From an uncultured Chloroflexia bacterium (lineage in GTDB: Bacteria; Chloroflexota; Chloroflexia; Thermomicrobiales; UBA6265): a stretch of 64,000 nt of DNA. The stretch is taken from the NCBI GenBank assembly GCA_963741795.1, contig CAVUJM010000043.1:24538-88537 (forward strand), given 5' to 3'. This document shows, one piece after another, positions 5,633-62,911 of this stretch. The notes beneath the pieces are model-generated. The model was not told where the DNA came from and did not search any database. It worked only from the letters and a program-made list of their open reading frames with translations. The position numbers were made by a program, and so were the translations under genes. Position 1 is the stretch's first letter; the number at the start of each line of letters is the position of its first letter.

Positions 5633-5862
5633 TCAATGTCCCGAGGCAGGTCCCTATCCCTTGGGAACTCCACATCGCCCTTCGGGATGCTCAGTAGATG
5701 CTCTCCGAAAGACTTCTTCTTACCCTCGATCTGCTCGAGCTCTTCCTGCGAGATCACGACCACGGCACCCTCATCCGTCTGGATCCGCTGACGCTTCTCG
5801 TGCAGCGCCTTCTCCACGATCTCCGAGAGCTTCTGATCGTCCTTTGTGATCGTCCAGTCCAT
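5626..5862 (-). CDS. Type II antitoxin (Phd/YefM-like VapB partner)
   Basis: 78 aa and acidic. It sits directly upstream of vapC and is translationally overlapped with it. There is a strong AGGAGG 6 nt before the ATG. Confidence 0.7.
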   Translation of the reverse strand: MDWTITKDDQKLSEIVEKALHEKRQRIQTDEGAVVVISQEELEQIEGKKKSFGEHLLSIPKGDVEFPRDRDLPRDIEW

Positions 5863-7315
5863 GACAGCACCTCCTGATGTTCTGTTGGGTTGCGACTGTC
5901 TGGATCAATCGTAGCAGGAGCCGAACGGCCCGGATCCCTACTCGTCCGTCAGGTGCCGCGAGCATGAGGTCGTAGACGTCGGTCGCGTCGATCTCATCGG
6001 AACCAAGCAGGTCGTGGGCATTGGTGATCACCATCGGGCGATCGTCGATGTGCTCATTGCGCAGGCCGTGCGAGCCCCTCACGACGGAAGCGTCCAGCGG
6101 CACGATCTCCAGCAGCGACCGGAAGCCGAGTTTCTTTTTCGCCAGCGAGAGACCGGCCTTGGCCTTCACGAACTTGTCCGCCGGGTCAAAGAAGAGCTCC
6201 GCCGGGTCGTAGCCCGGCTTCTGGTGGATATCCACCGTGCGCGCGTAGTCCGGCGCCTTGGCGTCATCGGTCCACCAGTAGTAGGTGAACCACGCGTCCG
6301 GATCCGACAGCGCGACGAGCTCGCCGGCCCGCTCGTGGTCCAGCCCCATCTCGCGCTTGCCCGCCTCGTCCAGCACGCGGCCGACACCGTCAACGCCCTC
6401 GACCACGTGCTTGACCTCGTCGATCTTCGCCAAATCGTTGACGTAGATATGCGCGATCTGGTGATCCGCGACGGCGAACGCCGTGCACGTCGCGACGTCG
6501 ATCATCTCGCGGCCCCATTCCTCGCGCCACGAGAGCCACCCCTTCTCGCGGAAGACGCGGTTCAGGTGCACCGGTTTCGAGACCGGCATGATGCCGTACT
6601 CGGAGAGCAGGATCACCCGGGCGCCACGCGACTCATAGAAGTCGATCAGGTCCCCCGTCACCTCGTCGATCTCCTGCAGGTCCTTGGTGATGTAGGTCCG
6701 GTCCGGTCCGTACTTCTGCAGGCAATAGTCGAGATGCGGGAGGTAGATCAGCGTCAGCGTCGGATTGAACTCGCGTTCATAGATCTTCGAGGCGTCGGCG
6801 ATCCACTTCGACGACACGATCGTCGCGTTCGCCCCCCAGAAGTTGAAGAGCGGGAACTGCCCCAGCTCTTCGGTCAGCCGGTCGCGCATCCACATCGGCT
6901 TCGTGTAGCAATCGGGGATCTTGCGGCCGTCGGAGGGATACATCGGGCGCGGAGTGACGAGATAGTCGGCGGTGGTGTTCATATTGAACCACCAGCTCAT
7001 GTTCGCCACGGTGAATGACGGATCCTGCTTCTTCGCGGCGTCCCAGATCTTCTCGCCCTCGACGAGCTTGTTCGACTGCCGCCAGAACTTCACCTCGTCG
7101 CGATCACGGAAGTACCACCCGTTGCCGACCACGCCATGCTCGCGCGGACGCTTGCCGGTCAGGTAGGTCGCGTGGCCGGTGGCCGTCACGGCGGGGATGA
7201 CCGGGTCGATCGACGCAGCCTTCCCGCGCTCGACAAAGTCCTTGATGCGCGGCGTCGATTCGCCGATGAGCGACGGGACGAGGCCGACCACGTTGATGAC
7301 AACGGTCTTGTGCAT
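5771..7315 (-). CDS. eboF: Alkaline-phosphatase-superfamily nucleotide pyrophosphatase/phosphodiesterase (EboF-type). The 3' end is uncertain.
   Basis: N-terminal VVINVVGL...AVTATGHATYLTG is the metal/nucleophile region of type I phosphodiesterases. It is the last gene of the ebo-like cluster. The last ~55 codons look non-native and overlap the antitoxin gene. Confidence 0.75.
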   Translation of the reverse strand: MHKTVVINVVGLVPSLIGESTPRIKDFVERGKAASIDPVIPAVTATGHATYLTGKRPREHGVVGNGWYFRDRDEVKFWRQSNKLVEGEKIWDAAKKQDPSFTVANMSWWFNMNTTADYLVTPRPMYPSDGRKIPDCYTKPMWMRDRLTEELGQFPLFNFWGANATIVSSKWIADASKIYEREFNPTLTLIYLPHLDYCLQKYGPDRTYITKDLQEIDEVTGDLIDFYESRGARVILLSEYGIMPVSKPVHLNRVFREKGWLSWREEWGREMIDVATCTAFAVADHQIAHIYVNDLAKIDEVKHVVEGVDGVGRVLDEAGKREMGLDHERAGELVALSDPDAWFTYYWWTDDAKAPDYARTVDIHQKPGYDPAELFFDPADKFVKAKAGLSLAKKKLGFRSLLEIVPLDASVVRGSHGLRNEHIDDRPMVITNAHDLLGSDEIDATDVYDLMLAAPDGRVGIRAVRLLLRLIQTVATQQNIRRCCHGLDDHKGRSEALGDRGEGAAREASADPDG

Positions 7316-7319
7316 AGGT

Positions 7320-8192
7320 TCAGGTTCCCTTGATATAGCGCTGGAGGAACATCGTCAGGGCGAGGCAGGTCATCGCGGTCAACGCGCCCCACCACGCCTG
7401 GTGGGTGGCAAGCACCAGCGCATCGAGCATCGAGATCCCGGCAATCAGGCGGGCGATCGCCCCACCGACCTGCCGATTGGAACTGCGGTAGGCAAACGCG
7501 ACGCTATGCAGCACCCACACCACATGGGCCACCGCGAGCGACCAGACCAGCACATCAACCGGCTCCATGATCACGGCAACCACGGCCGGGGCGATCACGG
7601 TCGCCAGAGGCCAGTAGCGCCCAACGCCCGGCAGCGACTCCGTCTTGGCGATATAGGTCAGGCCGGAGACGTACGCAAGCATCACCAGCGACCAGATCCA
7701 GAGCTCGCCCGTCGCCTCGCTCGCGAACGCATAAAAGGCGACGACGTAGACCATCACGCGGGCGAGCGCCATGATCACCGGGCCGATCGGGTTGCCCTTG
7801 TGCCAGGCATCGTAGATCGCGATCACCGCGACAAGCACGACACCCGCGTAGAACGACTCACGGTCGACCGTCCAGAGCAGCACCAGCCCGGAGATGAAGA
7901 GCACGAGCGTGACCGACCACGCCTCCACGAGCGTGATGCGCCCTGAAGGCAGAGGCCGGTCGGGGCGCTGCTCCCGATCGATTCTCAGGTCGAGGATGTC
8001 GTTCAGGTACATCCCTGCCGTGTAGAAGAGCGCGACGGCGATGATGATCAGCGCGATCTCCACGCTGAACACCAGCGGCGCGGCGATCACCGCCCCGGCG
8101 AGGACGTTGCTGATCGTGGTCGGCGTGTTGGAGATGCGCGCGAGCCCGAGGTGCGCCCGCAGCGCCGCGCCGGAGGGCCTCGGCTCAGACAT
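7320..8192 (-). CDS. eboC: UbiA-family prenyltransferase (EboC-type)
   Basis: Polytopic membrane protein with the Asp-rich motif NDILDLRIDREQRPDRPLPSG. Confidence 0.85.
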   Translation of the reverse strand: MSEPRPSGAALRAHLGLARISNTPTTISNVLAGAVIAAPLVFSVEIALIIIAVALFYTAGMYLNDILDLRIDREQRPDRPLPSGRITLVEAWSVTLVLFISGLVLLWTVDRESFYAGVVLVAVIAIYDAWHKGNPIGPVIMALARVMVYVVAFYAFASEATGELWIWSLVMLAYVSGLTYIAKTESLPGVGRYWPLATVIAPAVVAVIMEPVDVLVWSLAVAHVVWVLHSVAFAYRSSNRQVGGAIARLIAGISMLDALVLATHQAWWGALTAMTCLALTMFLQRYIKGT

Positions 8193-9396
8193 GATCCAGC
8201 ACCCACTGGAGCTCGCGGCTGATCATCGTCTCCAGCGGCGCCTTGAGGTCCGCCGGAAGCACATCCCAGGTGTATGTCTCGATCTCGAGGTGGTTCGTGA
8301 CCTCGCGCTCTCGCATCAGTCGGAACGTCTCGAGGATCGTGTCCTGCGTCGACTCGAACGCCTCGTACCGCTCAACGAAGACCGGCACATGGAAGTGCAG
8401 CCGCCATTCCTCCGCGTCCGCGTCGCCGATATGCGGCAGGGCGTCGGGCAAATCCGGGTAGTTCGTGAACGAGCCATCGGCGTTGCGCTGGACGACCTGA
8501 TGCAGGTAGACCGGCTCGTTGAACGCGGCGAGCTCCTTCGAGACCCGCTTGCGCCCCACCTCATCATCCGGCAGCGTCACCTTCAGCGCAGAGCTGATCT
8601 GGACCTTGCCGACCTTGATCCCAAGCGCGTCGAAGCGGTCCAGTAGCTCCCGAGGATCCTCGTAGCTGACGGCGACGTGGCAGGTGTCGAAGCAGACGCG
8701 AACATGATCGAGGATCTGCTCTCTCGCCAGCCCCGGGTCGTTCCCGGCCCGGTCGGCAAGCAAGGCCACACCCTGCTTCAGCAGCCAGTCCTCGTAGAAG
8801 CGGATCAGCTCGGTGCCATTGCTGAGCACGCCGTCCGGCTCCGGCTCGATATCGAGGTGAATGAGCTTGCCGGTTTCCTCGCGCAGGCGCACGAGGTGCT
8901 GCACGATGCGGACGATGTTCAGCGTGAACACGGTCCAGTTCGCCGGCATCCCGGTATCGACCCACGGCTTGTAGCCGAGCGGGCTCGTCGAGATGCTGCC
9001 CTCATCGATGTCGTCCGGCAGGAGCTTCGAGAGGATCGTGCTGAGCCGGAAGGTGTAACCGAGGCGCTCCTCGTCGTGCCAGTCCGGCAGGTGGACCTTG
9101 CCTTTCACCGCCTCGCCGTGGAACGGGCCATACGGGAAGCCGTTCATAGTGAAGACGTAGAGGCCGTGCTCGTCCAGCAGCGCGCGGAAGCGGTCCAGCC
9201 GGTCACCTTCGAGGATGTCCTTGCTGGCCTGACCGGCGAGCCGCAACCCGACGCCGAACGGCGCATCCGGCGAAAAGCGCGCCTTCAGCGGCGGTAGGTA
9301 CGTCTGGATGTTCGCTTCGACGTCATCCAGCGTGACCCCCGGATGCACGTTCATGCAGTAGGTGAGATGGCGAGACGGATGATCCGGTAACCGCAC
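8185..9396 (-). CDS. eboE: Xylose-isomerase-like TIM-barrel protein (EboE-type)
   Basis: The conserved N-terminal LTYCMNVHPG fits the EboE family, and so does the gene context. I chose the GTG at 9394-9396 (GAAAGG upstream). The longer ORF to 9567 would run into an intergenic repeat. Confidence 0.7.
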   Translation of the reverse strand: MRLPDHPSRHLTYCMNVHPGVTLDDVEANIQTYLPPLKARFSPDAPFGVGLRLAGQASKDILEGDRLDRFRALLDEHGLYVFTMNGFPYGPFHGEAVKGKVHLPDWHDEERLGYTFRLSTILSKLLPDDIDEGSISTSPLGYKPWVDTGMPANWTVFTLNIVRIVQHLVRLREETGKLIHLDIEPEPDGVLSNGTELIRFYEDWLLKQGVALLADRAGNDPGLAREQILDHVRVCFDTCHVAVSYEDPRELLDRFDALGIKVGKVQISSALKVTLPDDEVGRKRVSKELAAFNEPVYLHQVVQRNADGSFTNYPDLPDALPHIGDADAEEWRLHFHVPVFVERYEAFESTQDTILETFRLMREREVTNHLEIETYTWDVLPADLKAPLETMISRELQWVLDHV

Positions 9397-9451
9397 GAGG
9401 GATGGCCTTTCGTGATGGTAAAAGATCGCGTACAGCCGCGCGTGAAACACC

Positions 9452-9611
9452 GTCATTCCGAGGTAAGCGAAGCGGCGAGGAATCCCCCGGCGAAGCCGAT
9501 CGACCGCAGGTCGATACCCATGCGCGGCATCAAGCCCAGAACGGAAACGGAAGGCGCTTCGCGCCATTGGATGTGCTTCGCACGGGGATTCTTCGCTTCG
9601 CTCAGAATGAC
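9452..9611. repeat. MITE/REP-like element bounded by imperfect terminal inverted repeats
   Basis: GTCATTCCGAGGTAAGCGAAGCGGCGAGGAATCCCC (9452-9487) is the near reverse complement of GGGGATTCTTCGCTTCGCTCAGAATGAC (9584-9611). It lies in the eboB-eboE spacer. Confidence 0.6.
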
Positions 9612-9636
9612 GATGGCGTTGTCGCTTCGGGTTCGT

Positions 9637-10483
9637 TTACTGATCCAGGCTCACCGGCATCTGGCCGGCCGCGACGCCGCGCTTGAGCTGGAACTTCGGC
9701 GACTGGCTCAGGAAGCGCTTCGGGTTCTCGAACACGATCTCCCGGATCAACTCGTCCGTGTGCCCGCGCCGGCGCATCTCCATCATGAACTTCGGCACCG
9801 CGACCGGCTCGCTCGGTCCCCAGTCGCAGGCGGCCGCAACGACGATCCGCTCGGTGCCATAGCGCTCGAACATGTCGACCGCACGGCCCGGCGTCATCTT
9901 CGTCACCGGGTAGAGCGTGAACCCGGTCCAGAAACCCGGCATCGCGGATCAGCGGCAGGGTGTGCTCCTCGGCGTGGTCGATCATCACCCGGTTCGGGTC
10001 GATGCGGCCATCGGCGGCGAGCGTCTCCACGATCACCTTCGTGCCCTTGTACTTGTCCTCGAGGTGCGGCGTGTGGATATGGATCATCTGGTTGTGCTCG
10101 AGCGCCAGCTCGACGTGATCCTTGAACGACTCGAGCTCCTTGCGCGTCACGCGGTTGAGCCCGATCTCGCCGATGCCGAGCACGTTCGGGCGCTCGAGGT
10201 ACTCGGGGATGAACGCAAGCACCTGCTTGGTCAGCTCGCGGTCCTCGGCCTCCTTCGGGTTGAGGCAGAGCCAGGCGTAGTGCTGGATGCCGTACTCCGC
10301 GGCGCGGGCCGGCTCGAACGTCGTGATGTGATTGAAGTAGTCGCGGAAGACGTCGGCCGAGTAGCGGTCGTATCCGGCCCAGAACGCCGGCTCCGTGACG
10401 GCGACGCACCCGGAGAGCGCCATCTTCTCGTAGTCGTCCGTCGTCCGCGACACCATGTGCGCGTGCATGTCGATGTATTCCAT
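9637..10483 (-). pseudogene. eboB: TatD-family metal-dependent hydrolase (EboB-type), frameshifted as assembled
   Basis: ORF 9602..10483 has [14 protein letters not shown]...HIHTPH motifs but goes out of frame after LIRDAGF. ORF 9637..9942 continues [11 protein letters not shown]. The junction is at AAACCC 9932-9937. Confidence 0.75.
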
Positions 10484-10507
10484 AGGACTTGTCCCCCGTG
10501 TCTCGTC

Positions 10508-10807
10508 CTACCGGACGGATGCGCCATAGGCGGCCTTGCGGTCCAGCTCCTCGAGCAGGTCGGTGTTCTGGTCGCTGAAGATCATCTGGATCCGCTCGAT
10601 GCGCCCGGGCTCGTCGGAGTTCAGCTCCGCCATCGCCTTCCGCAGCGCGATGATCCGGAAATCGTCCTCGGCGTTCTTCTCCTCCAGCCGGTCGAGCCGG
10701 TCGAGGAATGCCGCAATCTCCAGCACCCGGTTACGCTGCTCCATGAAGTACTGGTCGATGTGCTGCTGCTGCGTCAACGGGCTCTTGGGAACGGTGATCT
10801 CGCTCAT
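10508..10807 (-). CDS. Small helical hypothetical protein inside the ebo-type cluster
   Basis: 99 aa. Its start overlaps the eboD stop by 4 nt (10804-10807). It is too short for me to equate confidently with EboA. Confidence 0.5.
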   Translation of the reverse strand: MSEITVPKSPLTQQQHIDQYFMEQRNRVLEIAAFLDRLDRLEEKNAEDDFRIIALRKAMAELNSDEPGRIERIQMIFSDQNTDLLEELDRKAAYGASVR

Positions 10808-12012
10808 GATGTAACTCCTGTCCTCACGCGCGCCGCGCTCTCGGCCGCAAGCACGTGCATCGACTCGACAATGACCGACTCGTCCATTTCGTGGACCTCG
10901 ACGCCGCGACCAATCCCTTCCAACAACATGATCGTCAGCTCCCCACCCAGATGCTCACGGAACTCGTTCAACCCCGCAAGGATCGACGACGACGTTCCAC
11001 GCTGCTCCAGGGACGCGAGCAACTCTGGCGCGGAGATCGGCAGCCCGACGGCGACGAACACGTCGAGGATGCGTCGCCAGTCGTCCTCCGGCAGCATCCC
11101 CAGCTTCCATGCATACGTGGAATCCAGCGCGATGCCGATCGCGACCGCCTCACCGTGGCGCCAGGCGTAGCCGGAGATCTGCTCCAGCTTGTGCGCCGCC
11201 CAGTGGCCGAAGTCGAGCGGCCGCGACGACCCGAACTCGAACGGATCACCGCTGGTCGCGATGTGCTGCAGGTGCAGCTCCGCGCAGCGGAAGATCAGCC
11301 AGTCCATCGCCTCGGCATCGCGTTCGCGCAGCGCCGTCGCCTGCTCCTCGATCCACGCGAAGAAGGACGCATCCTTCAGCAACGCGACCTTGATCGCCTC
11401 GGCGATGCCACCGATCCATTCGCGGTCCGGCAGCCGGGAGATGAGCAGGGCATCGTTGATCACGGCATACGGCGGGGCGAAGGTGCCCAGGAAGTTCTTC
11501 TTGCCGAACTTGTTGACGCTGTTCTTCACGCCGACGCCGGAGTCGTTCTGGGAGAGGATCGTCGTGGGCATGCGAATCAGGCGAATCCCGCGGTGCGCCG
11601 TCGCCGCCGCGTAGCCAACCATATCGAGGATCGCCCCGCCGCCGATCACGACGACGTAGGAATGCCGGTCGATACCGCCGGCGTCGATCGCGGCATGGAT
11701 CTCGTCGACGATCTCCGGGTCATTCTTGATCGCCTCGCCACCGGAAACCAGCATCGGTGGCTGGACAAGCTGCAGCTGCCTGCCATGCGCGGCGAACCAC
11801 GCCTCGATCTCCGGCGCGAGGTCGGGATACGCGTTGGCGACACCGCCGTCGAGGACAACCAGCACCTTCCGCACGCGGGCCGCGCCATCGCGCGCGCAGA
11901 CCTCGGCGAGGATCTCGTTGTCAGGATGGAAGACATCCCGGGTGAACAGGACTGGATAGGTATACGGGACCTGGATCGATTGCTCGATCACGCGGGATTG
12001 AACGTGGGACAT
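10804..12012 (-). CDS. eboD: 3-dehydroquinate-synthase-like sugar phosphate cyclase (EboD-type)
   Basis: DHQS-fold motifs VVVIGGGAILDMVGYAAATAHRGIRLIRMPTT and LSQNDSGVGVKNSVN. It is the first gene of the minus-strand cluster. Confidence 0.8.
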   Translation of the reverse strand: MSHVQSRVIEQSIQVPYTYPVLFTRDVFHPDNEILAEVCARDGAARVRKVLVVLDGGVANAYPDLAPEIEAWFAAHGRQLQLVQPPMLVSGGEAIKNDPEIVDEIHAAIDAGGIDRHSYVVVIGGGAILDMVGYAAATAHRGIRLIRMPTTILSQNDSGVGVKNSVNKFGKKNFLGTFAPPYAVINDALLISRLPDREWIGGIAEAIKVALLKDASFFAWIEEQATALRERDAEAMDWLIFRCAELHLQHIATSGDPFEFGSSRPLDFGHWAAHKLEQISGYAWRHGEAVAIGIALDSTYAWKLGMLPEDDWRRILDVFVAVGLPISAPELLASLEQRGTSSSILAGLNEFREHLGGELTIMLLEGIGRGVEVHEMDESVIVESMHVLAAESAARVRTGVTS

Positions 12013-12197
12013 GGATCAGGAACATCCTTCAGGCTGCGTGGTCCTCTCCAAAGGGACACGAAAGGGAAACGGTGAATCACCGACGCCGGTTGCCAATGGA
12101 CTTCCGGGGACACGATGTCGGTATTATCCCGCATCCGTTCCATTGCGCCACCATCGGCACACCAACGTGACCGGCGGTCACAGGGATCATCTGGAAT

Positions 12198-12436
12198 TGT
12201 GGATAACCCCGCCCATATGGTGGATAACCCGCCACATTTGTGGACAACATGCCGGGGATTGTGGTGAAAGCCGGGTTGGGCCGTGTGTGGGCTGTGCATG
12301 TCGCGGGGACGCCCGTGGGGATTGTCAACGCTGTCGGAAGACGTGACAGTGGAGCCGTGGATGACGCTGGCCGGTTGTCCACGACGAAATTTCGGCGCCA
12401 TATCGGGCCAATCGGGACTTATCCCCACTATCCACA
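12198..12436. promoter_or_regulatory. Cluster of 8 DnaA-box-like 9-mers (oriC-like / DnaA-binding region)
   Basis: TGTGGATAA 12198, GGTGGATAA 12219, TGTGGACAA 12239 and TGTGGTGAA 12260 are spaced 20-21 bp apart. CGTGGATGA is at 12356. On the opposite strand are TTGTCCACG 12375, TTATCCCCA 12419 and CTATCCACA 12428. Confidence 0.65.
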
Positions 12437-12441
12437 CCCCC

Positions 12442-12485
12442 TATTAACGGTTACGAATTCTCTTTCATACTTTAAGAATTAACGG
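12442..12485. other. AT-rich tract (candidate DNA unwinding element) right after the last DnaA-box pair and a C5 run
   Basis: TATTAACGGTTACGAATTCTCTTTCATACTTTAAGAATTAACGG is about one-third G+C by my count, in an otherwise GC-rich window. Confidence 0.5.
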
Positions 12486-12684
12486 GCACGGACAACGCTC
12501 ACGTGGACACACGTCACATGCACACACCAAACCACCTCCATTCCATAGACCCCGGACCCCGGCCGAGCGCGCAGCGCGAGAAGCGTCAGCGAGCCTTTGT
12601 GTCCGGGGTCGTGCGCGGAGACTCACGGGCATCAGGTCGCTTGTGCGACGTGACTGCGTACGAGGTGAACGTCTTCGAAGACGC

Positions 12685-13761
12685 TTAGTAATAGATCGTC
12701 GGTGTCAGGTGATAGGGATGGAGGGCGCCCGGAAGCGCCTGCGACTGCGTCCACAGCAACCAGTCCAGCTCATATGCCGAAAACGCGCGGCCGCGGTCCC
12801 GTAACGCCTGGCGCAGCAGCTCCACGCCCCAGATCGTGCCGGCGCGAATCTCTATCTCGACCAATGATCCGGCCGGGATGTGCTCGCGCGCCTCGATGAT
12901 CGCCGCCAGCCCGGGCGCGTAGCGCAGGATGCCCAGCTCGCGGAGCATCTGCGGCACCTTGTAGTCCGCGAATGCCGTCAAGGTGTGGAGATCGTGGAAA
13001 ACGCCGAGCGGCGAGCCCTGGAGCCCACCCGCGAGATCGCCGGCGAGGATCTGGGCGCGCTTGTAGAAGCGCACCTCGTTTCCGGGCAGGCCGGTTTCGC
13101 CGCGCGGCCAGGTCGCGACGTCATGAAACGATGGGAACCGCCGCACGACGTCCTCGATCAGCGCGATGGCCGAGCCCTTGGCCTGCTGGATCAGCGTTGT
13201 CGCTGGTCTCTCGCTGTCGAGGTCGAGCAGGCCGCTGCCGAGCTCGCGGAGGTTCCAGACACGATGGTGGAAGAGCGGGATGAGCGCATGGCCCTCTGCA
13301 GGCGCCAGGATCGCCTCCACGGTCCCGTCATCGATGTTCGCGAGAAACGGTGCATTGTGCAGCGGCACGCCGTTCTCGACGGCCCTGGTGAGCGCGGCAA
13401 CGAGGGCGACGTAGCCGTCGACCAGCTCCCCGCGCCACTCGACGCGCCAGCGGAAGGCGGGATCGCTCCCCTGCCCCCAGAAGCAGAAGTTCAACGCGTC
13501 CAGCACAAGGATCCACATCGCCGTGCGCTCGTCGCCGTCCGGTCCGGTCGCCCGGTAGTGCAGCGCCGCATCCCACTCCGGGGCAGAGTCGTGATCGCGA
13601 AGGTCATCGGCGACCGTGGCGATGGCATCCATGTCGATCGCGACATCGTCCGCGGTGCGCATCACGGCCGCGGTCGAGCGCAGGATACCCAGCGGATCCT
13701 CCGCCTCGGTCATCGCGATGCGGGACCAATCGACTCCGGATGCGGGTCGCCACGATGCCAT
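12685..13761 (-). CDS. Queuosine salvage family protein (DUF2419)
   Basis: LDALNFCFW, RFYKRAQILAGDL, LTAFADYKVPQMLRELGIL, and the C-terminal HPYHLTPTIYY. Confidence 0.75.
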   Translation of the reverse strand: MASWRPASGVDWSRIAMTEAEDPLGILRSTAAVMRTADDVAIDMDAIATVADDLRDHDSAPEWDAALHYRATGPDGDERTAMWILVLDALNFCFWGQGSDPAFRWRVEWRGELVDGYVALVAALTRAVENGVPLHNAPFLANIDDGTVEAILAPAEGHALIPLFHHRVWNLRELGSGLLDLDSERPATTLIQQAKGSAIALIEDVVRRFPSFHDVATWPRGETGLPGNEVRFYKRAQILAGDLAGGLQGSPLGVFHDLHTLTAFADYKVPQMLRELGILRYAPGLAAIIEAREHIPAGSLVEIEIRAGTIWGVELLRQALRDRGRAFSAYELDWLLWTQSQALPGALHPYHLTPTIYY

Positions 13762-14442: not shown

Positions 14443-15063
14443 CTAGACCGTGGCGGGAACGCGCGCCGGGCGGTACATCGTCCAGTGCGGCGTGGAGCCC
14501 GGCGCGAGCTGCACCTCGGCCTTGCGCACGTCGAAGCCGAAGCGCTTGTAGAAGCGGACGTTGCGCTGGGTGCCGGTCTCGAGATAGGCCGGGAGGCCGT
14601 CCTTGTCGAGCTCTTCCAGCGACTCGCGCAGCAGCGTACTGCCGATGCCCTTGCCCTGGCCTTCCGGATCGACGCCGAGCAGCTTCAGGTACCAGACCGG
14701 CTCGTCCGGGAAGTGCGTGTAGCAGTTGTCGTCGTACGCCTGGAGGCCCTCGGCGATCTCGGGATCGACGTTCTTCAGGTACGTCGGCGTCCCGTCATCG
14801 TCGGCCGGCGGGTAGGAGCCCGGAGCGCCCCAGATGGCGACGCCGAGGATCTTGCCGGTCTCCTCGTCGGTGGCGACGAAGACGGCGTCGTGCGACATCG
14901 CGGTCTCGATCGAATCGTGCATGCGGGAGACGAGTACGCGGCGGCGCACGTCCTCGTCGGGGAGGACGGCGGCGTAGCCGGGCTCAACCATCATCGCTTC
15001 GGCGATCACCGGGCTGGCGTGCGGGGTCTCATGGGCGTCGAGTTTGCGGATCTGAATACTCAT
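14443..15063 (-). CDS. GNAT family N-acetyltransferase (paralog 2)
   Basis: GVDPEGQGKGIGSTLL and NVRFYKRFGF. It is collinear with paralog 1. I use the ATG at 15061-15063; the longer 529-aa ORF upstream is a shadow ORF over rlmN. Confidence 0.8.
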   Translation of the reverse strand: MSIQIRKLDAHETPHASPVIAEAMMVEPGYAAVLPDEDVRRRVLVSRMHDSIETAMSHDAVFVATDEETGKILGVAIWGAPGSYPPADDDGTPTYLKNVDPEIAEGLQAYDDNCYTHFPDEPVWYLKLLGVDPEGQGKGIGSTLLRESLEELDKDGLPAYLETGTQRNVRFYKRFGFDVRKAEVQLAPGSTPHWTMYRPARVPATV

Positions 15064-15299
15064 AAACGGAAAACGGGTCCTTTTCGATCGTGATCGTCCG
15101 AAACATACTGTGACCTCGCGGGGTGCGGACGATCTCGCGTCCCGCGGGTCATGCCAATCGCCCTCGATCCCGCATGTGCGGGGAGGGCATGGCGACATAC
15201 CGGTATACCTCCCGCCAGTCTCGTGCCGTCGGGGCAATCGATCAGGCTGATACCCCGAGGCGGCACCTGCGGTACCGGTCTCGCACACGTGGTGCGAGA

Positions 15300-16439
15300 C
15301 TACGCGGAGACGGCTTTTTCCTGCTGCATCTGCTGATGCCGGTTGCGAAGCTGGCCGCAGGCGGCGTCGATCTCCACACCGCGCGAGTACCGCACCGTCG
15401 TCGGGATCCCGGCGTCGCGCAGGATGCTCGCGAAGCGCTCGATCACCTCCGGGTTGGGCCGCTCGAACTCCAGCACGTCGACCGGGTTGAACGGGATCAC
15501 GTTCACATGGCAGAGCCGGCCCCTCAGGAGCTGGCCCAGCTCGCGGGCGATCTCGTCGCTGTTGTTGATGCCGTTCATCAGCGCGTACTCGAACGAGATG
15601 CGCCGGCCGGTCTTCTCCGCGAAGCGGTCCGTCGCCTCCAGCAGCACCTCGATCGGCCAGCGGTTGTTGACCGGCACCAGCTGCGAGCGCAGCTCGTTGT
15701 TCGGCGCGTGCAGCGAGACCGCGAGGTTCACCTGGTACGGCTCGTCGGCCAGGGCGTCGATGCGCGGCACGATGCCAGAGGTCGAGATCGTGATCCGGCG
15801 CGCGCCGAAGTTCATCCCCCGCGGGTCGTGGATGATGTTGATGAACTTCATCGTCTCCGCGTAGTTCTGGAGCGGCTCGCCCATCCCCATCATCACGAGG
15901 TTCGTCAGGTTGCGGCCGAGCTTGCGCGCCTGCCGCGCGGCGTCCACCGTCTGCTGCACGATCTCGCCGGCGGAGAGGCTGCGCGTCAGCCCGCCAAGCC
16001 CGGTCGCGCAGAACGCGCACCCCACCGCACACCCGACCTGGCAGGACACGCAGACCGTTGCGCGGTCCGGATAGAGCATCAGCACCGTCTCCACAAGCTG
16101 GCCGTCGAACGTCTCGTAGAGCAGCTTGTAGGTGTCCCCGTTGTCGGTCACCTGCTCGGAGACCGGCTTCATCGTGCGGAAGGGTGTCCCCTCACCCATC
16201 GCCTGGAGCAACGGGCCGGGCACGTTCGCCATGTCGCCGTAGTCCTCGACGAACTTGTCGTAGGCCCAGTCGAACATCTGCTTCGCGCGGTAGGCAGGGG
16301 CGCCCTGCTCGACCAGGCGTGCCTGCAGGTCGTCGAAGGTCAGGTCGTAGAACCCGCTCAGTCGCTTGCTGCGGGGCACGGCCCGGCGAACGGGCACGAT
16401 GGGGCTCTCGGTTGGTGTGTGCTGGGTCGTCTCTGTCAT
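15300..16439 (-). CDS. rlmN: 23S rRNA/tRNA adenine-C2 methyltransferase RlmN (radical SAM)
   Basis: CVSCQVGCAVGCAFCATG cluster, MGMGEPL, and conserved C-terminal CGQL. Confidence 0.95.
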   Translation of the reverse strand: MTETTQHTPTESPIVPVRRAVPRSKRLSGFYDLTFDDLQARLVEQGAPAYRAKQMFDWAYDKFVEDYGDMANVPGPLLQAMGEGTPFRTMKPVSEQVTDNGDTYKLLYETFDGQLVETVLMLYPDRATVCVSCQVGCAVGCAFCATGLGGLTRSLSAGEIVQQTVDAARQARKLGRNLTNLVMMGMGEPLQNYAETMKFINIIHDPRGMNFGARRITISTSGIVPRIDALADEPYQVNLAVSLHAPNNELRSQLVPVNNRWPIEVLLEATDRFAEKTGRRISFEYALMNGINNSDEIARELGQLLRGRLCHVNVIPFNPVDVLEFERPNPEVIERFASILRDAGIPTTVRYSRGVEIDAACGQLRNRHQQMQQEKAVSA

Positions 16440-23717: not shown

Positions 23718-23783
23718 CGACGACACATGCCGGCCAGATGTCCCAAGACAAGATAATCCACAATCGGATCATCACAACTGTCG

Positions 23784-35736: not shown

Positions 35737-37569
35737 CTAGTTGCCCGCCTCGTCCTCATCGACCGGGTCGAGCGTGCGCTGCTCCCGGTTCGTGGTCGGC
35801 GTGCTGTCGGAGGAGGGCGCCGAAGTCGGCTGCACGCCGGATGGCTCGTCGGCACCGGTCTCGCGCTGGTAATCCTCGAGCGACCATTGATCGCCGGCGG
35901 GGTCCGGCGCGTCGTTGCCGAGCATCACCACGATGTCATAGCCGGCGTACTGGTCGATCCCATCGTTGGCAATTGAGCTTGCGTCGCCGAGCACGATCGT
36001 ATCGGCGCCGACGCCGATCAGGCTCGAGATCATCGCCGAGGTGCCGAGGTTGCTGTCATGGTCCACGATCGTCGATTGGTCGTGGTCGCCCTGGTTGTCC
36101 GCATTGTCGACGGAGACGTTCCAGAAGCCGTTCTGTTCGAGCGTGGTGCCGACGCGTCCAGCGAGGCCGGTGTTGGTGGTGCCGTTGAGGATCATGATCG
36201 AGGCGCCGTAATCCGGGTCAGCGATGGCCGCGCCGGGCGGGCTGATCGGCGCGCCGGCGAACTCGCTGAAGATATCCGTCGCGATATTCCAATCGGCGCT
36301 GAGGTAGTACGTGCCGTCGAGGCCGGGGTCGTCGTAGAGGGCCGGCAAGAGTGAGATCGACTGGATCTCGTCGCGCGGGATTTCCATGCCGACCTGTGCG
36401 AGGCGAATGGCGTCGCTGATGGAGATATCGGTGCGCACGGAGTCGCCGAACTGCCGGATCAGCGTTGGGAGCTGGCCGACGAGGTTGAGGCTGACGGCCT
36501 GGTCGCGCAGGGCGAGGAGGACCTGCTGCTGTCGCGCCGAGCGCATCGTGTCGCCGTCCTGGTGGCGCGTGCGGGCGTAGATCAGCGCCTCTTCGCCATC
36601 GAGGTGCTGCCATCCGGCCGGGAAGTAGATGCGCTGGTAGCGGTAGTTCTCCGCCGGGTAGGCATCGTCGCGGATCGGGTACGGCACGTCGACAACCACG
36701 CCGCCGACCGTATCGATCATCTGGATAAAGCCCTGGAAATCGATTTGGACGAAACCGTGGACCGGGATGCCGAGGTTCGACTCGATCGTGCGGATGGTGA
36801 GGCCGGCTCCCCCACCCTGTACCTGGTTGAACTCGCCGAGGGCGAAGGCGGCGTTGATCTTGTGGACGCCGTAGCCAGGGATGACCACCTTCAGGTCCCG
36901 CGGGATCGACATCATCGTCGCGGACTTGTCGACCGGGTCGATGTTCACGAGGATCAGCGTGTCAGTCCGCGAGGCGCCGCCGGCCTCGATATCGACGCCT
37001 AGCAGCAGGATGGTGATCGGCTCGGAGCCCGACCAGCTGCTTCCGTCTTCCTCATTGGATGCGGCGACCAGCTCGGGCGTGCCTTGCACGTTGAGCTGGG
37101 GCACGAACGCCGAGTTGAGATGCTCGACCGGGCCGACGGTGACATTTCGGTACGCCTGGAACGAGGACCAGATGACTGGGCTGAGCGCGAGCATGGCCAC
37201 GATGAGCAGGATGCCAGGGATGCCGAGGACCGGCCAGAACCAGCGCTTCTGGCGTAGGGCGGCGATGCGCGAGGCGGGACGGCGGTTCGCCGCCTGGACC
37301 TCCTGGGCGATGGCGAACTCGGCCTGGAGCGGTGTGGCGGTCGCCGGTATGGCGGTCGGAATCGCGGTTGGAAAGGAACGCTGGCGCGATGCGCGTCGCG
37401 AGCGAGGTGCGCTGTACCGCTGGTAACGGTCGGCCGGGCGTTCGCGACGTCGGGCGGCGTCCACAGCGCCCGCGCGGGTGCGTGCGGCGTGTCGGCGCCG
37501 GCGAGCCAGGTAGTCCCCGGCGGAATCGTCCGGGCGGGATTGGTGCATGGGTGAGTCGTGATCTGGCAT
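35737..37569 (-). CDS. LytR-CpsA-Psr (LCP) family cell-envelope phosphotransferase with a C-terminal LytR_C-like domain
   Basis: TM anchor, then ILLLGVDIEAGGASRTDTLILVNIDP...SIPRDL...KINAAFALGE. Confidence 0.85.
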   Translation of the reverse strand: MPDHDSPMHQSRPDDSAGDYLARRRRHAARTRAGAVDAARRRERPADRYQRYSAPRSRRASRQRSFPTAIPTAIPATATPLQAEFAIAQEVQAANRRPASRIAALRQKRWFWPVLGIPGILLIVAMLALSPVIWSSFQAYRNVTVGPVEHLNSAFVPQLNVQGTPELVAASNEEDGSSWSGSEPITILLLGVDIEAGGASRTDTLILVNIDPVDKSATMMSIPRDLKVVIPGYGVHKINAAFALGEFNQVQGGGAGLTIRTIESNLGIPVHGFVQIDFQGFIQMIDTVGGVVVDVPYPIRDDAYPAENYRYQRIYFPAGWQHLDGEEALIYARTRHQDGDTMRSARQQQVLLALRDQAVSLNLVGQLPTLIRQFGDSVRTDISISDAIRLAQVGMEIPRDEIQSISLLPALYDDPGLDGTYYLSADWNIATDIFSEFAGAPISPPGAAIADPDYGASIMILNGTTNTGLAGRVGTTLEQNGFWNVSVDNADNQGDHDQSTIVDHDSNLGTSAMISSLIGVGADTIVLGDASSIANDGIDQYAGYDIVVMLGNDAPDPAGDQWSLEDYQRETGADEPSGVQPTSAPSSDSTPTTNREQRTLDPVDEDEAGN

Positions 37570-50532: not shown

Positions 50533-51898
<1,366 letters not shown>

Positions 51899-60524: not shown

Positions 60525-62911
60525 TCAGGCGCCCTGGTCGCGCAACGCCGCGATCGCCGCCGCCTGCGAGCGCACGCCCAGCTTCTCCCGGATGTTCGCC
60601 ATATGCCGCTTGACCGTGTGCGGGCTCACGAAGAGGGCCGCGGCGATCTCCGACGATGTCATTCCCGTGGAGACCAGGTGCAGCACCTCCAGCTCGCGCG
60701 GAGAGAGCACCGTCTGCCCTGCCGGAGCCTCGGATGCCTCCGTCGTTGCCGCGCGGGGCGCTCGCTCGGGGTCGAAGCGCAAGAGGCGGTCGATCGTCTC
60801 GCCGAGGTCCAGGGTGCTGCCGTCCGCGATATCGCGCCCGGAGGCCACTCGCCAGCTATCGATACGCGCTCGCGTCGCCTCCGCGTCGGGAAGCTCCAGC
60901 GGGGAACGCGGCAGGCTCATCGTGCCACGCAGGTGCTCGCCCAGCGCCAACGCCTGCATCGCCAGCTCGCACGCGTCCAGCTCGACCAGCGTCGCCGACA
61001 CGATATCGAGCACCAGCGCGGTCGTGGCCAGGTCCCCGATCTCCATCAGCAGCGGCAATGCCTCGCGTAGCTTCCAGTACGCCTCTGCCGGCATGCCGTT
61101 CGCGCGGTCGACATGGGCCAGGTAGACCAGCGGCATGCCGATGCTCTGGCTGTCGTTGTGGGCGCGTCCGAGGCGTAGCGTCTCGATCAGGTGCTGCCGG
61201 GCGTCATCGAGCCGGCCGGCGAAGTAGCGCAGGATGCCGATCCCGAAGTGGCCGGCGGCTTCCTCGTGCCAGGCGTTCTCCACCTCCCGCGCCAGGGCGA
61301 TCACGCGCTCCAGCTCCTCGATCGCCGCCGGGGCATCCGGCCGCTCGAAGGTCAGCACATAGGAATACCCGATCATGCCGAGCAGCACGCCACGGCTCTG
61401 CGTATCGCCGAACAGCTCGCGCGCGGCCTGGAAATGCCGCTCCGTGCGCTCGATCTGGGCCATGCGGTGCGCGAACCACCCGGCGGTAACGTGGGCGCGG
61501 GCCCGCGTCTCCGGGGGTACGTCGTCGCCTGCCAGTTCCAGCAGCTCCTCGATCCGGGGCAGCGCCCACGGGTAGTGGCCCTGGCTGTACCAAAACCAGA
61601 ACATGTCGCCGCAGAGCTCCAGTGCCGCCGGGCGGAGGGCCGGGTCGGTCCGGCTGCGGGTGATGACCAGGTGCACGTCCGGCGACGCTTCCCGCATGCG
61701 TCGCAGCCAGCGCGGACCTTCCGGACCGTGATAGTGGCGGTCCGCGTCCTTCGCCAGCCGCACCAAGCGCGCGGGAGAGGCGGTCCAACGTGGTCGAGCG
61801 CAGCTCGGGCGACGCCTCCAGCTCGTCCAGCAGGACGGCTCCGGATCGTCTGCAGCATGGTGAAGGTGCGGTCCCCATCGCCCGCGGATGGCGCGCGCTG
61901 GATCAGGCTGCGATCGGCGAGGGTCAGCGTCAGGTCCCACGCGTCCCGGAGCGATCCGCTCTCCAGGATCGCCGCAACCGAGGTCGGGGTGAAGCCGTTG
62001 GAGAAGACCGCGAGGCGGATCGCGTCGTCCCGCGTGCCCGGTGGCAGCAGATCCAGGCTCCAGCGGACGAGATCCCGCAGCGATTGTTGCCGCGGGGGAA
62101 GGGTCCTCGGGCCGCCGCCCAGCGCCGGCATCGCATCATCCAGCATCGCCAGCACTTCGTCAGGCGAGAGGTGCCGCAGGTAGGCGGCGGCCAGCTCGAG
62201 CGCCACCGGCAGGCCGTCAAGGCGGCGCACAATGCGCTCGATCGTCTTGCGGTTGCAGTCGGTTACGGCGAAATCGTGGCGAAGCTGCCGCGCCCGGCTG
62301 ATGAAGAGCTCCATCGCGGGGGAACTCGACGCGACCGTCTTCTCGTCCGGCACCGGGAGCGGTGCAAGCCAGATCTCGTGCTCCCCCGGCAAGCGCAGCG
62401 TCTCCCGGCTCGTTGCCAGCGTCACGACGGCGGGGCAGGCGTGCAGCAGCGTGGGGAGCTCGGCCATGGCCTCGATCATCGACTCGGCGTTGTCCAGCAC
62501 GAGCAGGAGTTCCTGGCCGCGCAGGGGGTCGAGAATGGCGTCCGCGCTGGTGGTGTCCTGTCCGGAGGTCAGGCCGATATGCCGGCCAATCGCCTCCCAC
62601 AGAGAGGTGGCATCGAGCCGATCAAGCCGGAGGAAGAGCACGCCATGGGCGAAGTCGCCCGCCAGCCGGTGCGCGGTCGTGAGCGCGAGACGTGTCTTGC
62701 CTACGCCACCCGGCCCCAGGAGGGAGACAACCCGCGATGCACGGCTCTTCAGGAGCCGGAGCACGAGCGCAAGATCATCGTCCCGTCCAACCAGTGGATT
62801 TGTCGGTAGTGGTGGTGGCTGGCGCCTGGGAATGCCGGAGATACCCGGCAAGTGCGGCCCCGTAAGCGTATCCATCGTTGATGACGATCGACGAAGGTCA
62901 TCGCGTTCCAT
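60525..62911 (-). pseudogene. Large LuxR-family regulator (N-terminal P-loop NTPase, TPR-like middle, C-terminal LuxR HTH), two frame breaks as assembled
   Basis: The Walker A GPGGVGKTRLA, LLVLDNAE and GLPVALELAA lie in ORF 61373..62911. A short middle piece LLDELEASPELRSTTLDRLSRAL is in a third frame. TPR-like repeats and LSPRELEVLHLVSTGMTSSEIAAALFVSPHTVKRHMANI are in ORF 60525..61940. Confidence 0.8.

Follow-up and report, generated by a model that had tools for sequence, protein, structure and literature searches.

Where does the chromosome of the Thermomicrobiales begin to replicate, and could the site be one that lies away from dnaA? The question is raised by a 672-bp intergenic region (12013-12684) in a 64-kb stretch of DNA from an uncultured member of this order, referred to hereafter as the window, in which an array of DnaA boxes ends in an AT-rich tract. 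The first-pass annotation had described the array as a locus resembling a replication origin (oriC) away from dnaA and directly upstream of an ebo operon, and had named as alternatives a DnaA-titrating or DnaA-reactivating locus of the datA/DARS type, DnaA control of the ebo promoter, and iterons. Both the architecture of the array and its comparison with related loci support the description as an oriC-like locus, and we consider it likely that positions 12177-12490 contain a DnaA-dependent chromosomal oriC of the Thermomicrobiales.

Results

Architecture of the array

All the boxes of the first-pass annotation, with their spacing of 20-21 bp, were found by direct reading, as was the run of five C followed by a 44-nt tract for which about one-third G+C had been given. 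The features of the array, in plus-strand order, are:

12177-12186, no strand assigned: flank motif GTCACAGGGA just beyond the last box, TGTGAC-like, with TGTG invariant in a six-way alignment
12198-12268, minus strand: four phased DnaA boxes of the TTATCCACA type, starting at 12198, 12219, 12239 and 12260 and facing the tandem pair
12316-12333, minus strand: conserved central motif CAGCGTTGACAATCCCCA, kept in two multiple alignments
12356-12364, minus strand: DnaA box TCATCCACG (plus strand CGTGGATGA), first of the opposite-facing set, its TCCAC core kept in six of six aligned relatives
12375-12383, plus strand: DnaA box TTGTCCACG, oriented as the tandem boxes, its start 44 bp from that of the box at 12419
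12419-12436, plus strand: abutting tandem DnaA boxes TTATCCCCA and CTATCCACA, starting at 12419 and 12428 and directed toward the AT-rich tract
12437-12441, no strand assigned: C5/G5 run (CCCCC), a GC spacer that links the box pair to the AT-rich tract, read directly
12442-12485, no strand assigned: AT-rich tract, the proposed DNA-unwinding element (DUE), with 29.5% G+C in a window of 65% G+C
12478-12490, minus strand: conserved motif CGTGCCCGTTAAT on the distal border of the DUE, repeated directly at 12443-12455 (minus strand CGTAACCGTTAAT)

On the plus strand the phased boxes read TGTGGATAA at 12198, GGTGGATAA at 12219, TGTGGACAA at 12239 and TGTGGTGAA at 12260; they are spaced by 21, 20 and 21 bp, that is, they recur every two helical turns, and the direct repeat at 12196-12237 has 21-bp units that share 81% identity. 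The central motif holds a degenerate box, CAATCCCCA, with 3 mismatches, at the position of which one of the relatives described below (L084) has CTATCCCCA, with 2 mismatches. Each of the two tandem boxes carries 1 mismatch, and the pair is parted from the AT-rich tract by the 5-bp C run alone; on the minus strand this run yields, with the adjoining TA, the first DnaA-trio, TAG. The AT-rich tract is bracketed by a CGTTAAT-like repeat that is conserved in part: a C(C/T)CGTTAAT-like motif is kept at the position of 12478-12490 in the aligned relatives.

Neither the clustering of the boxes nor the composition of the tract can be attributed to chance. The window contains 12 boxes with at most 1 mismatch where 2.9 are expected, a number reached in none of 100 shuffles. 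Five of these boxes fall inside 250 bp (12198-12436), against a maximum of 3 in 1000 block shuffles, and eight boxes with at most 2 mismatches fall inside 300 bp, against a shuffle maximum of 6; there is no other DnaA-box cluster within the 64 kb. The segment 12442-12482 is at the same time the most AT-rich and the thermodynamically least stable 40-mer of the window (25% G+C, as compared with 35% for the runner-up).

Conservation of the array across the Thermomicrobiales

The nearest relative, contig CAVUJR010000008.1 of a metagenome-assembled genome (MAG; locus L001), was reached by a one-genome-per-species scan with an EboD-like protein, which assigned the window to the Thermomicrobiales (Chloroflexota), and shows 96% protein identity and full synteny with the window. 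It keeps the array: the whole element is 93% identical, the same as the coding flanks, with the four phased boxes at 97% and the tandem pair plus AT-rich tract at 98.5%. Other relatives were reached through homologues of the queuosine-salvage (Q_salvage) family protein encoded next to the array (L081, L082 and L083 with 74% protein identity, L084 with 72%, L085 with 62%, L087 with 53%), through homologues of RlmN (L208, L209), and through the metagenome scan described in the next section (L114/L164, L156/L110). The top 120 matches in the homologue lists all belong to uncultured Thermomicrobiales. Exact-sequence look-ups with the two proteins that flank the array gave no match in the collection searched.

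At least nine further Thermomicrobiales loci contain this array, with its boxes in unchanged order and at unchanged spacings. With the first box of the pair taken as zero, the common layout consists of boxes at 0 and +9 pointing one way, a box at +53 or +63 pointing the same way, a box at +72 pointing the opposite way, and boxes at about +168, +189, +209 and +230 also pointing the opposite way. The offset of the 12375 box (+53 from the pair) is identical in the window, L001, L081, L084 and L085. Conservation of the box spacing in related genomes had been put forward in the first-pass annotation as a check on its proposal, and it is borne out: the three strongest phased boxes hold 20/21 bp in the window and in nine loci (L001, L081, L084, L085, L087, L114, L164, L208 and L209). 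In L156 and L110 the proximal part of the array is shared and the distal box set is different. It can be seen in the multiple alignments that the boxes, the G-run and the AT-rich character are kept and that the intervening spacers drift. The tandem pair is nearly invariant in all relatives, the G-run is either GGGGG or GGGC, and the AT-rich tract stays AT-rich at one position, with drift of its internal letters.

The genes around the array are far less constant. In the window they are:

5771 to 12012, minus strand: ebo-type operon (Pfam)
10804-12012, minus strand: left flank gene, 3-dehydroquinate-synthase-like, first of the ebo-type operon (Pfam)
12522-12684, no strand assigned: hypervariable spacer that parts the element from the stop codon of Q_salvage, outside the conserved sequence, 43% identical to L001
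12685-13761, minus strand: right flank gene, Q_salvage family protein, its 3' end facing the array (Pfam)

Across relatives Q_salvage is the commonest neighbour of the array; it adjoins the array in the window, L001, L085, L087 and L209, and a FemAB gene lies between the two in L081 and L084. The neighbours on the far side are the ebo operon in the window and L001, femAB and a gene for a 388-aa protein in L081 and L084, a nucleotidyltransferase gene (AadA_C/NTP_transferase) in L085 and L087, and a CsoR-like gene in L209. In L114 and L208 the array has SH3, PNPOx and mnmE on one side and rlmN on the other. Both flanks are different in one lineage (L156, L110, L210), where the array lies between genes for a peptidase M16 and a ROK glucokinase. 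Since the flanking genes vary between lineages and the boxes, G-run and AT-rich tract persist, the array is a self-contained conserved element that behaves as a unit autonomous of its neighbours.

The arrays of the M16/ROK type (L156 1160-1600, L110, and L210 at about 9100-9990) have the same core, GTAACCGTTAGTAGGGGCTGTGGATAGTGGGGATAA, and lie in housekeeping surroundings that lack rlmN, Q_salvage and mnmE; they represent either a moved origin or a second array, perhaps on a second replicon. The tetranucleotide correlation is 0.94 between L208 (rlmN type) and L210 (ROK type) and 0.97 between L208 and the window, which is weak evidence that L208 and L210 come from different organisms rather than from one genome. 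Within about 10 kb of the main array of the relatives no comparable array was found, with the exception of a group of three boxes (TTATCCACA, CTATCCACA, TGTGGAGAA) in 32 bp at 1351-1382 of L085, about 10 kb from the main array and near DinB_2 and Lactamase_B; the homologous region of the window has a single box with 1 mismatch, at 23754.

The core of the array and its occurrence in other bacteria

Read on the minus strand, the array consists of the AT-rich tract, TAA, TAG, GGGG, TGTGGATAG, TGGGGATAA, one box pointing the same way, and then six boxes facing back; in 3' to 5' notation its core is AATAGGGGT GATAGGTGT GGGG GAT AAT. This order recalls the basal unwinding system (BUS), in which two tandem boxes are followed by a short GC spacer and by DnaA-trios that lead into an AT-rich region (Pelliciari et al., PMC8287927). 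The BUS was defined in Bacillus subtilis (boxes 6 and 7) and is predicted in 85% of the origins of the DoriC database (PMC8287927). The search rule of that study calls for a box with up to 2 mismatches, to which a tandem box with up to 4 may be added, oriented toward the trios, and at least 3 consecutive 3'-NAN-5' trios starting no more than 16 nt away (PMC8287927). The abutting boxes TTATCCCCA and CTATCCACA, which point toward the AT-rich tract, are what the box part of this rule describes. The array has in common with the BUS the tandem boxes directed toward the DUE, a G/C spacer of 4-5 bp, the trios 3'-GAT-5' and then 3'-AAT-5', and the AT-rich tract. Among the examples in Table S2 of the same paper, Geobacter (AATAGGGGT ATAGGTGT CGGG GAT GAC) and Bacillus cereus (AATAGGTGT ATAGGTGT TCGG GAT AAT) have the pair orientation and spacer seen here (PMC8287927). 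By its sequence, therefore, TAG-GGGG-TGTGGATAG-TGGGGATAA reads as a canonical BUS front end.

The specificity of the core was studied by scanning public metagenome contigs with TAGGGNNTGNGGANANTGNGGANAA, which returned 80 loci (L088-L167) from bacteria of 28-73% G+C. While the query fixed just GGG in the spacer, the free fourth position is G in most of the listed matches. The 40 nt upstream of the core are AT-rich in 65 of the 71 distinct matches, and 42 of the 71 carry at least 3 in-register trios, typically TAGTAGTAG. Where enough downstream sequence was available (50 matches), a gene with a dnaA-type Walker-A signature was found 1-1.3 kb away on the expected strand in 25, a placement that corresponds to the classical dnaA-oriC-dnaN arrangement. 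The scan also recovered independently the Thermomicrobiales loci L114/L164 and L156/L110. Because the matches carry AT-rich upstream DNA, trios and dnaA-type genes, the core is an empirical marker of replication origins.

Across these very different bacteria the core is a near-invariant succession of TAG, GGG(G/C)(C/N), TGTGGAnAn and TGTGGAnAA. In a sub-group of the matches (L122, L123, L125, L155, L159) TCG alternates with TAA or TAG triplets (TCGTAATCGTAGTAG), which recalls the CGT-punctuated triplets of the Thermomicrobiales arrays.

Chromosomal context and GC skew

The first-pass annotation had placed the window near an origin on the strength of its gene content, and all the elements it cited are confirmed: smc, mnmE, jag, yidC and rnpA were identified with Pfam, rpmH was read directly from the sequence, and three parS sites (3 matches against 0.03 expected) lie about 26 kb from the array:

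38444, 39234 and 39876 (to 39891), no strand assigned: parS sites

The parS sites mark the region as origin-proximal. A DnaA Walker-A signature was not found in any frame of the 64 kb, in agreement with the earlier statement that dnaA is not in the window. In each of the six loci tested the GC skew has negative values on the left side of the array and values of zero or above on its right, and the cumulative GC-skew minimum of the window falls at 12-13 kb. Third-codon-position skew follows codon usage and gene strand and is uninformative. Strand-biased 6- to 8-mers, and the flipping of GGGNAGGG at the array, did not rise above noise (|z| about 3-4) under either a 'flip' or a 'pass-through' model.

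Some local features of the skew profile are recorded here separately. The parS sites sit exactly at a local flip from strongly positive (35-39 kb) to negative (39-50 kb) skew, which could be an inversion boundary or simply reflect gene composition. A LytR_cpsA_psr gene at 35737-37569, with a coding-strand GC skew of −0.13 overall and −0.31 at third positions, makes up much of the peak at 36-38 kb. An IS110-family transposase and a STAND/NB-ARC-type NTPase are encoded at 50858-51844 and 61373-62911, where the skew is erratic, and hint at recent rearrangement or acquired DNA.

Comparison with Thermomicrobium roseum

Beyond the T. roseum genome paper and the DoriC tables, our literature search found no study of Thermomicrobiales origins. 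In T. roseum dnaA, dnaN, gyrA/B, spo0J and gidA are scattered (PMC2615216); since gene context failed for this reason, the genome paper relied on GC skew and set the origin at bp 1 (PMC2615216). As the marker genes are dispersed in this species, an origin away from dnaA is to be expected in the Thermomicrobiales. The absence of dnaA and dnaN, which the first-pass annotation had counted against an origin in the window, thereby loses force as an argument (PMC2615216).

DoriC gives a different position, at about 1,777,700 in NC_011959 (ORI92730242). This Ori-Finder prediction has in common with the array that it comes from the same order, is based on DnaA boxes, and lies away from a dnaA-dnaN pair; its BUS candidate, GAAAGGTGT GGCTGCACG GAGCAAAAA, is poor and unlike the core described here. 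The T. roseum megaplasmid NC_011961 has neither such an array nor a DnaA-box cluster where its skew places the start (915217-917427 and bp 1). The start adjoins a gene for a 736-aa 'AAA family ATPase', so that the megaplasmid probably uses a different initiator.

Discussion

An origin or a locus that does not fire

The array has much in common with oriC of Escherichia coli, which occupies the intergenic region between mnmG and mioC. In both cases the site is apart from dnaA; an AT-rich DUE with a 40-mer of 25% G+C stands at one end and is followed directly by a box in the TGTGGATAA orientation, with an opposite box further along; and the rpmH-rnpA-yidC-mnmE cluster lies tens of kilobases off and points toward the site. 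The Thermomicrobiales element measures about 300 bp, as compared with 232 bp for the annotated E. coli oriC. Unlike the latter it has no 13-mer GATC repeats or Dam-site enrichment, and there is no homology beyond the boxes. E. coli oriC contains arrays of low-affinity sites at 11-bp intervals, whereas the distal boxes here are phased by 20-21 bp.

Several observations weigh against an active origin at this site. The in-register trios of the window are GAT and AAT, followed by TGC, CAA and TGC (3' to 5'), and three consecutive NAN trios begin only at a distance of 20 nt from the box; the relatives have 1-2 in-register trios, so that the (.A.){3,} rule of PMC8287927 fails for them as well. With regard to BUS membership, the front end is present and the run of trios is short of the rule. 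Besides the 1-2 consecutive NAN trios, the array differs from the BUS in that it is not located between dnaA and dnaN and in that a CGTTAAT-like repeat brackets its AT-rich tract. The GC-skew amplitude is about 0.03, which is compatible with an origin but weak, and elsewhere in the window the skew is erratic, with strongly positive values at 35-39 kb, a sign reversal at about 39 kb and negative values from 39 to 56 kb. For L085 and L087 it hardly departs from zero on the side away from Q_salvage. As to the opposite side, where Q_salvage lies, the composition of shared homologous genes may account for much of the positive skew: every locus has those homologous genes on this arm, so that the six observations are not independent. 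To the right of the array about two-thirds of the rough gene calls would be head-on to an outgoing fork, among them mnmE and rpmH-rnpA-yidC-jag, and the rpmH operon points toward the array in L208 as it does in the window. Finally, two different origin positions have been proposed for T. roseum (about 1,777,700 and bp 1), and neither could be connected with this array.

An alternative is that the DnaA-box locus is conserved and resembles an origin without being the active initiation site. It would then be a cryptic or secondary origin, or a cluster that titrates or regulates DnaA, and a true and stronger origin would lie in another place, such as beside dnaA or beyond the right end of the window. 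The strand bias of the window (40 of 59 rough gene calls are on the minus strand) would fit a fork that passes leftward through all of it, and the orientation of the rpmH cluster and the weak skew fit as well. Precedents exist in Pseudomonas aeruginosa, where oriCII is reported as a non-firing locus that regulates gidAB-parAB (PMC13438810), and in B. subtilis, where DnaA-box clusters are reported outside oriC (PMC3245932). Such loci share with the array conserved boxes, an origin-proximal intergenic position and the vicinity of mnmE/gidA-type genes, but they are transcriptional or titration elements (PMC13438810, PMC3245932); the array, unlike them, combines a full unwinding-module front end with the least stable tract of its region. 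No competing origin was seen within the 64-kb window or in about 10 kb of flanking sequence in the relatives.

Against a locus that does not fire it can be said that a box pair in the correct orientation is connected, through a TAG trio and a GC spacer, with the least stable 40-mer of 64 kb. The same module is found at the dnaA-linked origins of the metagenome scan and is conserved across the order, and the dispersal of origin marker genes in T. roseum means that no dnaA-dnaN origin is expected. The gene orientation is also less telling than it might seem. In E. coli MG1655 rpmH-rnpA-yidD-yidC-mnmE (3,884-3,888 kb, plus strand) faces the proven oriC at 3,925,744-3,925,975 and is therefore head-on; dnaA lies beyond rpmH and the cluster is about 40 kb from oriC, the same topology as in the window. 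Because of this likeness the head-on rpmH operon loses its force as an objection. Overall, a locus that does not fire has a real but clearly smaller probability than an active origin.

The datA and DARS loci of E. coli are a particular case of this kind, each comprising a small set of boxes with IHF/Fis sites for DnaA-ATP hydrolysis or nucleotide exchange and no unwinding element. To our knowledge, no known titration or reactivation locus carries a conserved unwinding element. A datA/DARS-like locus, one of the alternatives of the first-pass annotation, is disfavoured, because in the architecture read here the boxes are joined to an AT-rich tract that is conserved and has a BUS front end.

Regulation of neighbouring genes, and iterons

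The boxes might instead be operator sites by which DnaA regulates the ebo operon or the queuosine-salvage gene. In the window and L001 the 5' region of the ebo operon does contain the array, and in most of the relatives examined Q_salvage is adjacent or one gene off (femAB in L081/L084). The boxes are not, however, tied to this operon: no DnaA-box cluster lies near it in seven more distant Thermomicrobiales ebo loci (L002-L007, L009), and the array is found with no ebo operon at its site in L081, L084, L085, L087, L208 and L209. DnaA control of the ebo promoter was rejected on these grounds, and in general an array that is kept in varied gene contexts is not a feature of the ebo promoter. As for Q_salvage, it is transcribed toward the array, which consequently lies at its 3' end, and L208 and L210 have the array with neither ebo nor Q_salvage as a neighbour. 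No sigma-70-like promoter was detected in 11900-12800. The comparison of loci largely refutes an operator function, which we regard as very improbable. The position 'directly upstream of the ebo operon' given in the first-pass annotation is accurate for the window and L001, but the association is incidental, in that the array occurs elsewhere without ebo.

The 81% identity of the 21-bp repeat units could suggest that the repeats are iterons, left by a plasmid or another mobile replicon that has integrated here, or that the cluster arose by chance, but this is very improbable and the iteron alternative was dismissed, since the repeated core is the DnaA box itself, no rep gene is nearby, the array and core have no similarity to 72,556 plasmid records (BLAST), the element is self-contained and kept at a chromosomal housekeeping locus across the order, and shuffling never reproduced the cluster.

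A possible mechanism and its implications

Returning to the array as a chromosomal oriC, we infer from its geometry how it might be bound by DnaA, unwound and fired. DnaA would bind two opposed sets of boxes, one made up of the abutting pair (12419-12436) and the 12375 box, facing the AT-rich tract, and the other of the 12356 box, the degenerate box near 12320 and the four phased boxes (12198-12268), facing back to the pair. A DnaA oligomer anchored on the abutting pair would then cross the G5 spacer, reach the first DnaA-trios (minus strand, 3'-GAT AAT-5') and open the 44-bp AT-rich tract (12442-12485), where the helicase would be loaded.

A further and speculative extension, which we hold to be rather unlikely as it stands, is that Thermomicrobiales origins use a variant unwinding module with 1-2 trios, CGT-punctuated triplets and bracketing CGTTAAT-like repeats, so that DnaA or another factor would engage the single strand in a manner different from B. 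subtilis. The replicator of about 300 bp would, moreover, have kept its internal geometry in at least three unrelated neighbourhoods, with the rpmH-yidC-mnmE block permanently head-on where it is seen.

As a class the element is ordinary, in that every bacterium has an origin; a naturally occurring module of the BUS type with a shortened run of trios is its one unusual feature. Its interest lies in providing a precisely delimited, order-wide candidate replicator, and with it a testable origin, where the origin had not been pinned down. The motif TAGGGGNTGTGGAWAGTGKGGAWAA together with three boxes at 20/21 bp could serve to anchor the chromosomes of MAGs and coverage-based estimates of growth rate.

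Other observations in the window

Rfam and tRNA scans of the window returned no RNA genes. The 163-bp spacer at 12522-12684 cannot be aligned with L001, despite 93-98% identity on either side of it, and contains a perfect 10-bp inverted repeat (12548-12557 / 12601-12610). Two minus-strand open reading frames overlap, one at 14443-16032 (529 aa, with a C-terminal GNAT domain) and the other at 15300-16439 (379 aa, RlmN-like); the 529-aa frame is probably over-extended at its 5' end. According to Pfam, the products of the ebo-type operon are a 3-dehydroquinate-synthase-like protein, a 99-aa protein, a TatD-like protein, a TIM-barrel protein, a UbiA protein and a phosphodiesterase. The whole operon occurs at this site in the window and L001 alone, other genes being found there in L081, L084, L085, L087 and L209, and in a complete Thermomicrobiales MAG (L004, OZ244596.1) it is on 'chromosome 2'; the ebo-type operon thus looks mobile within the order.

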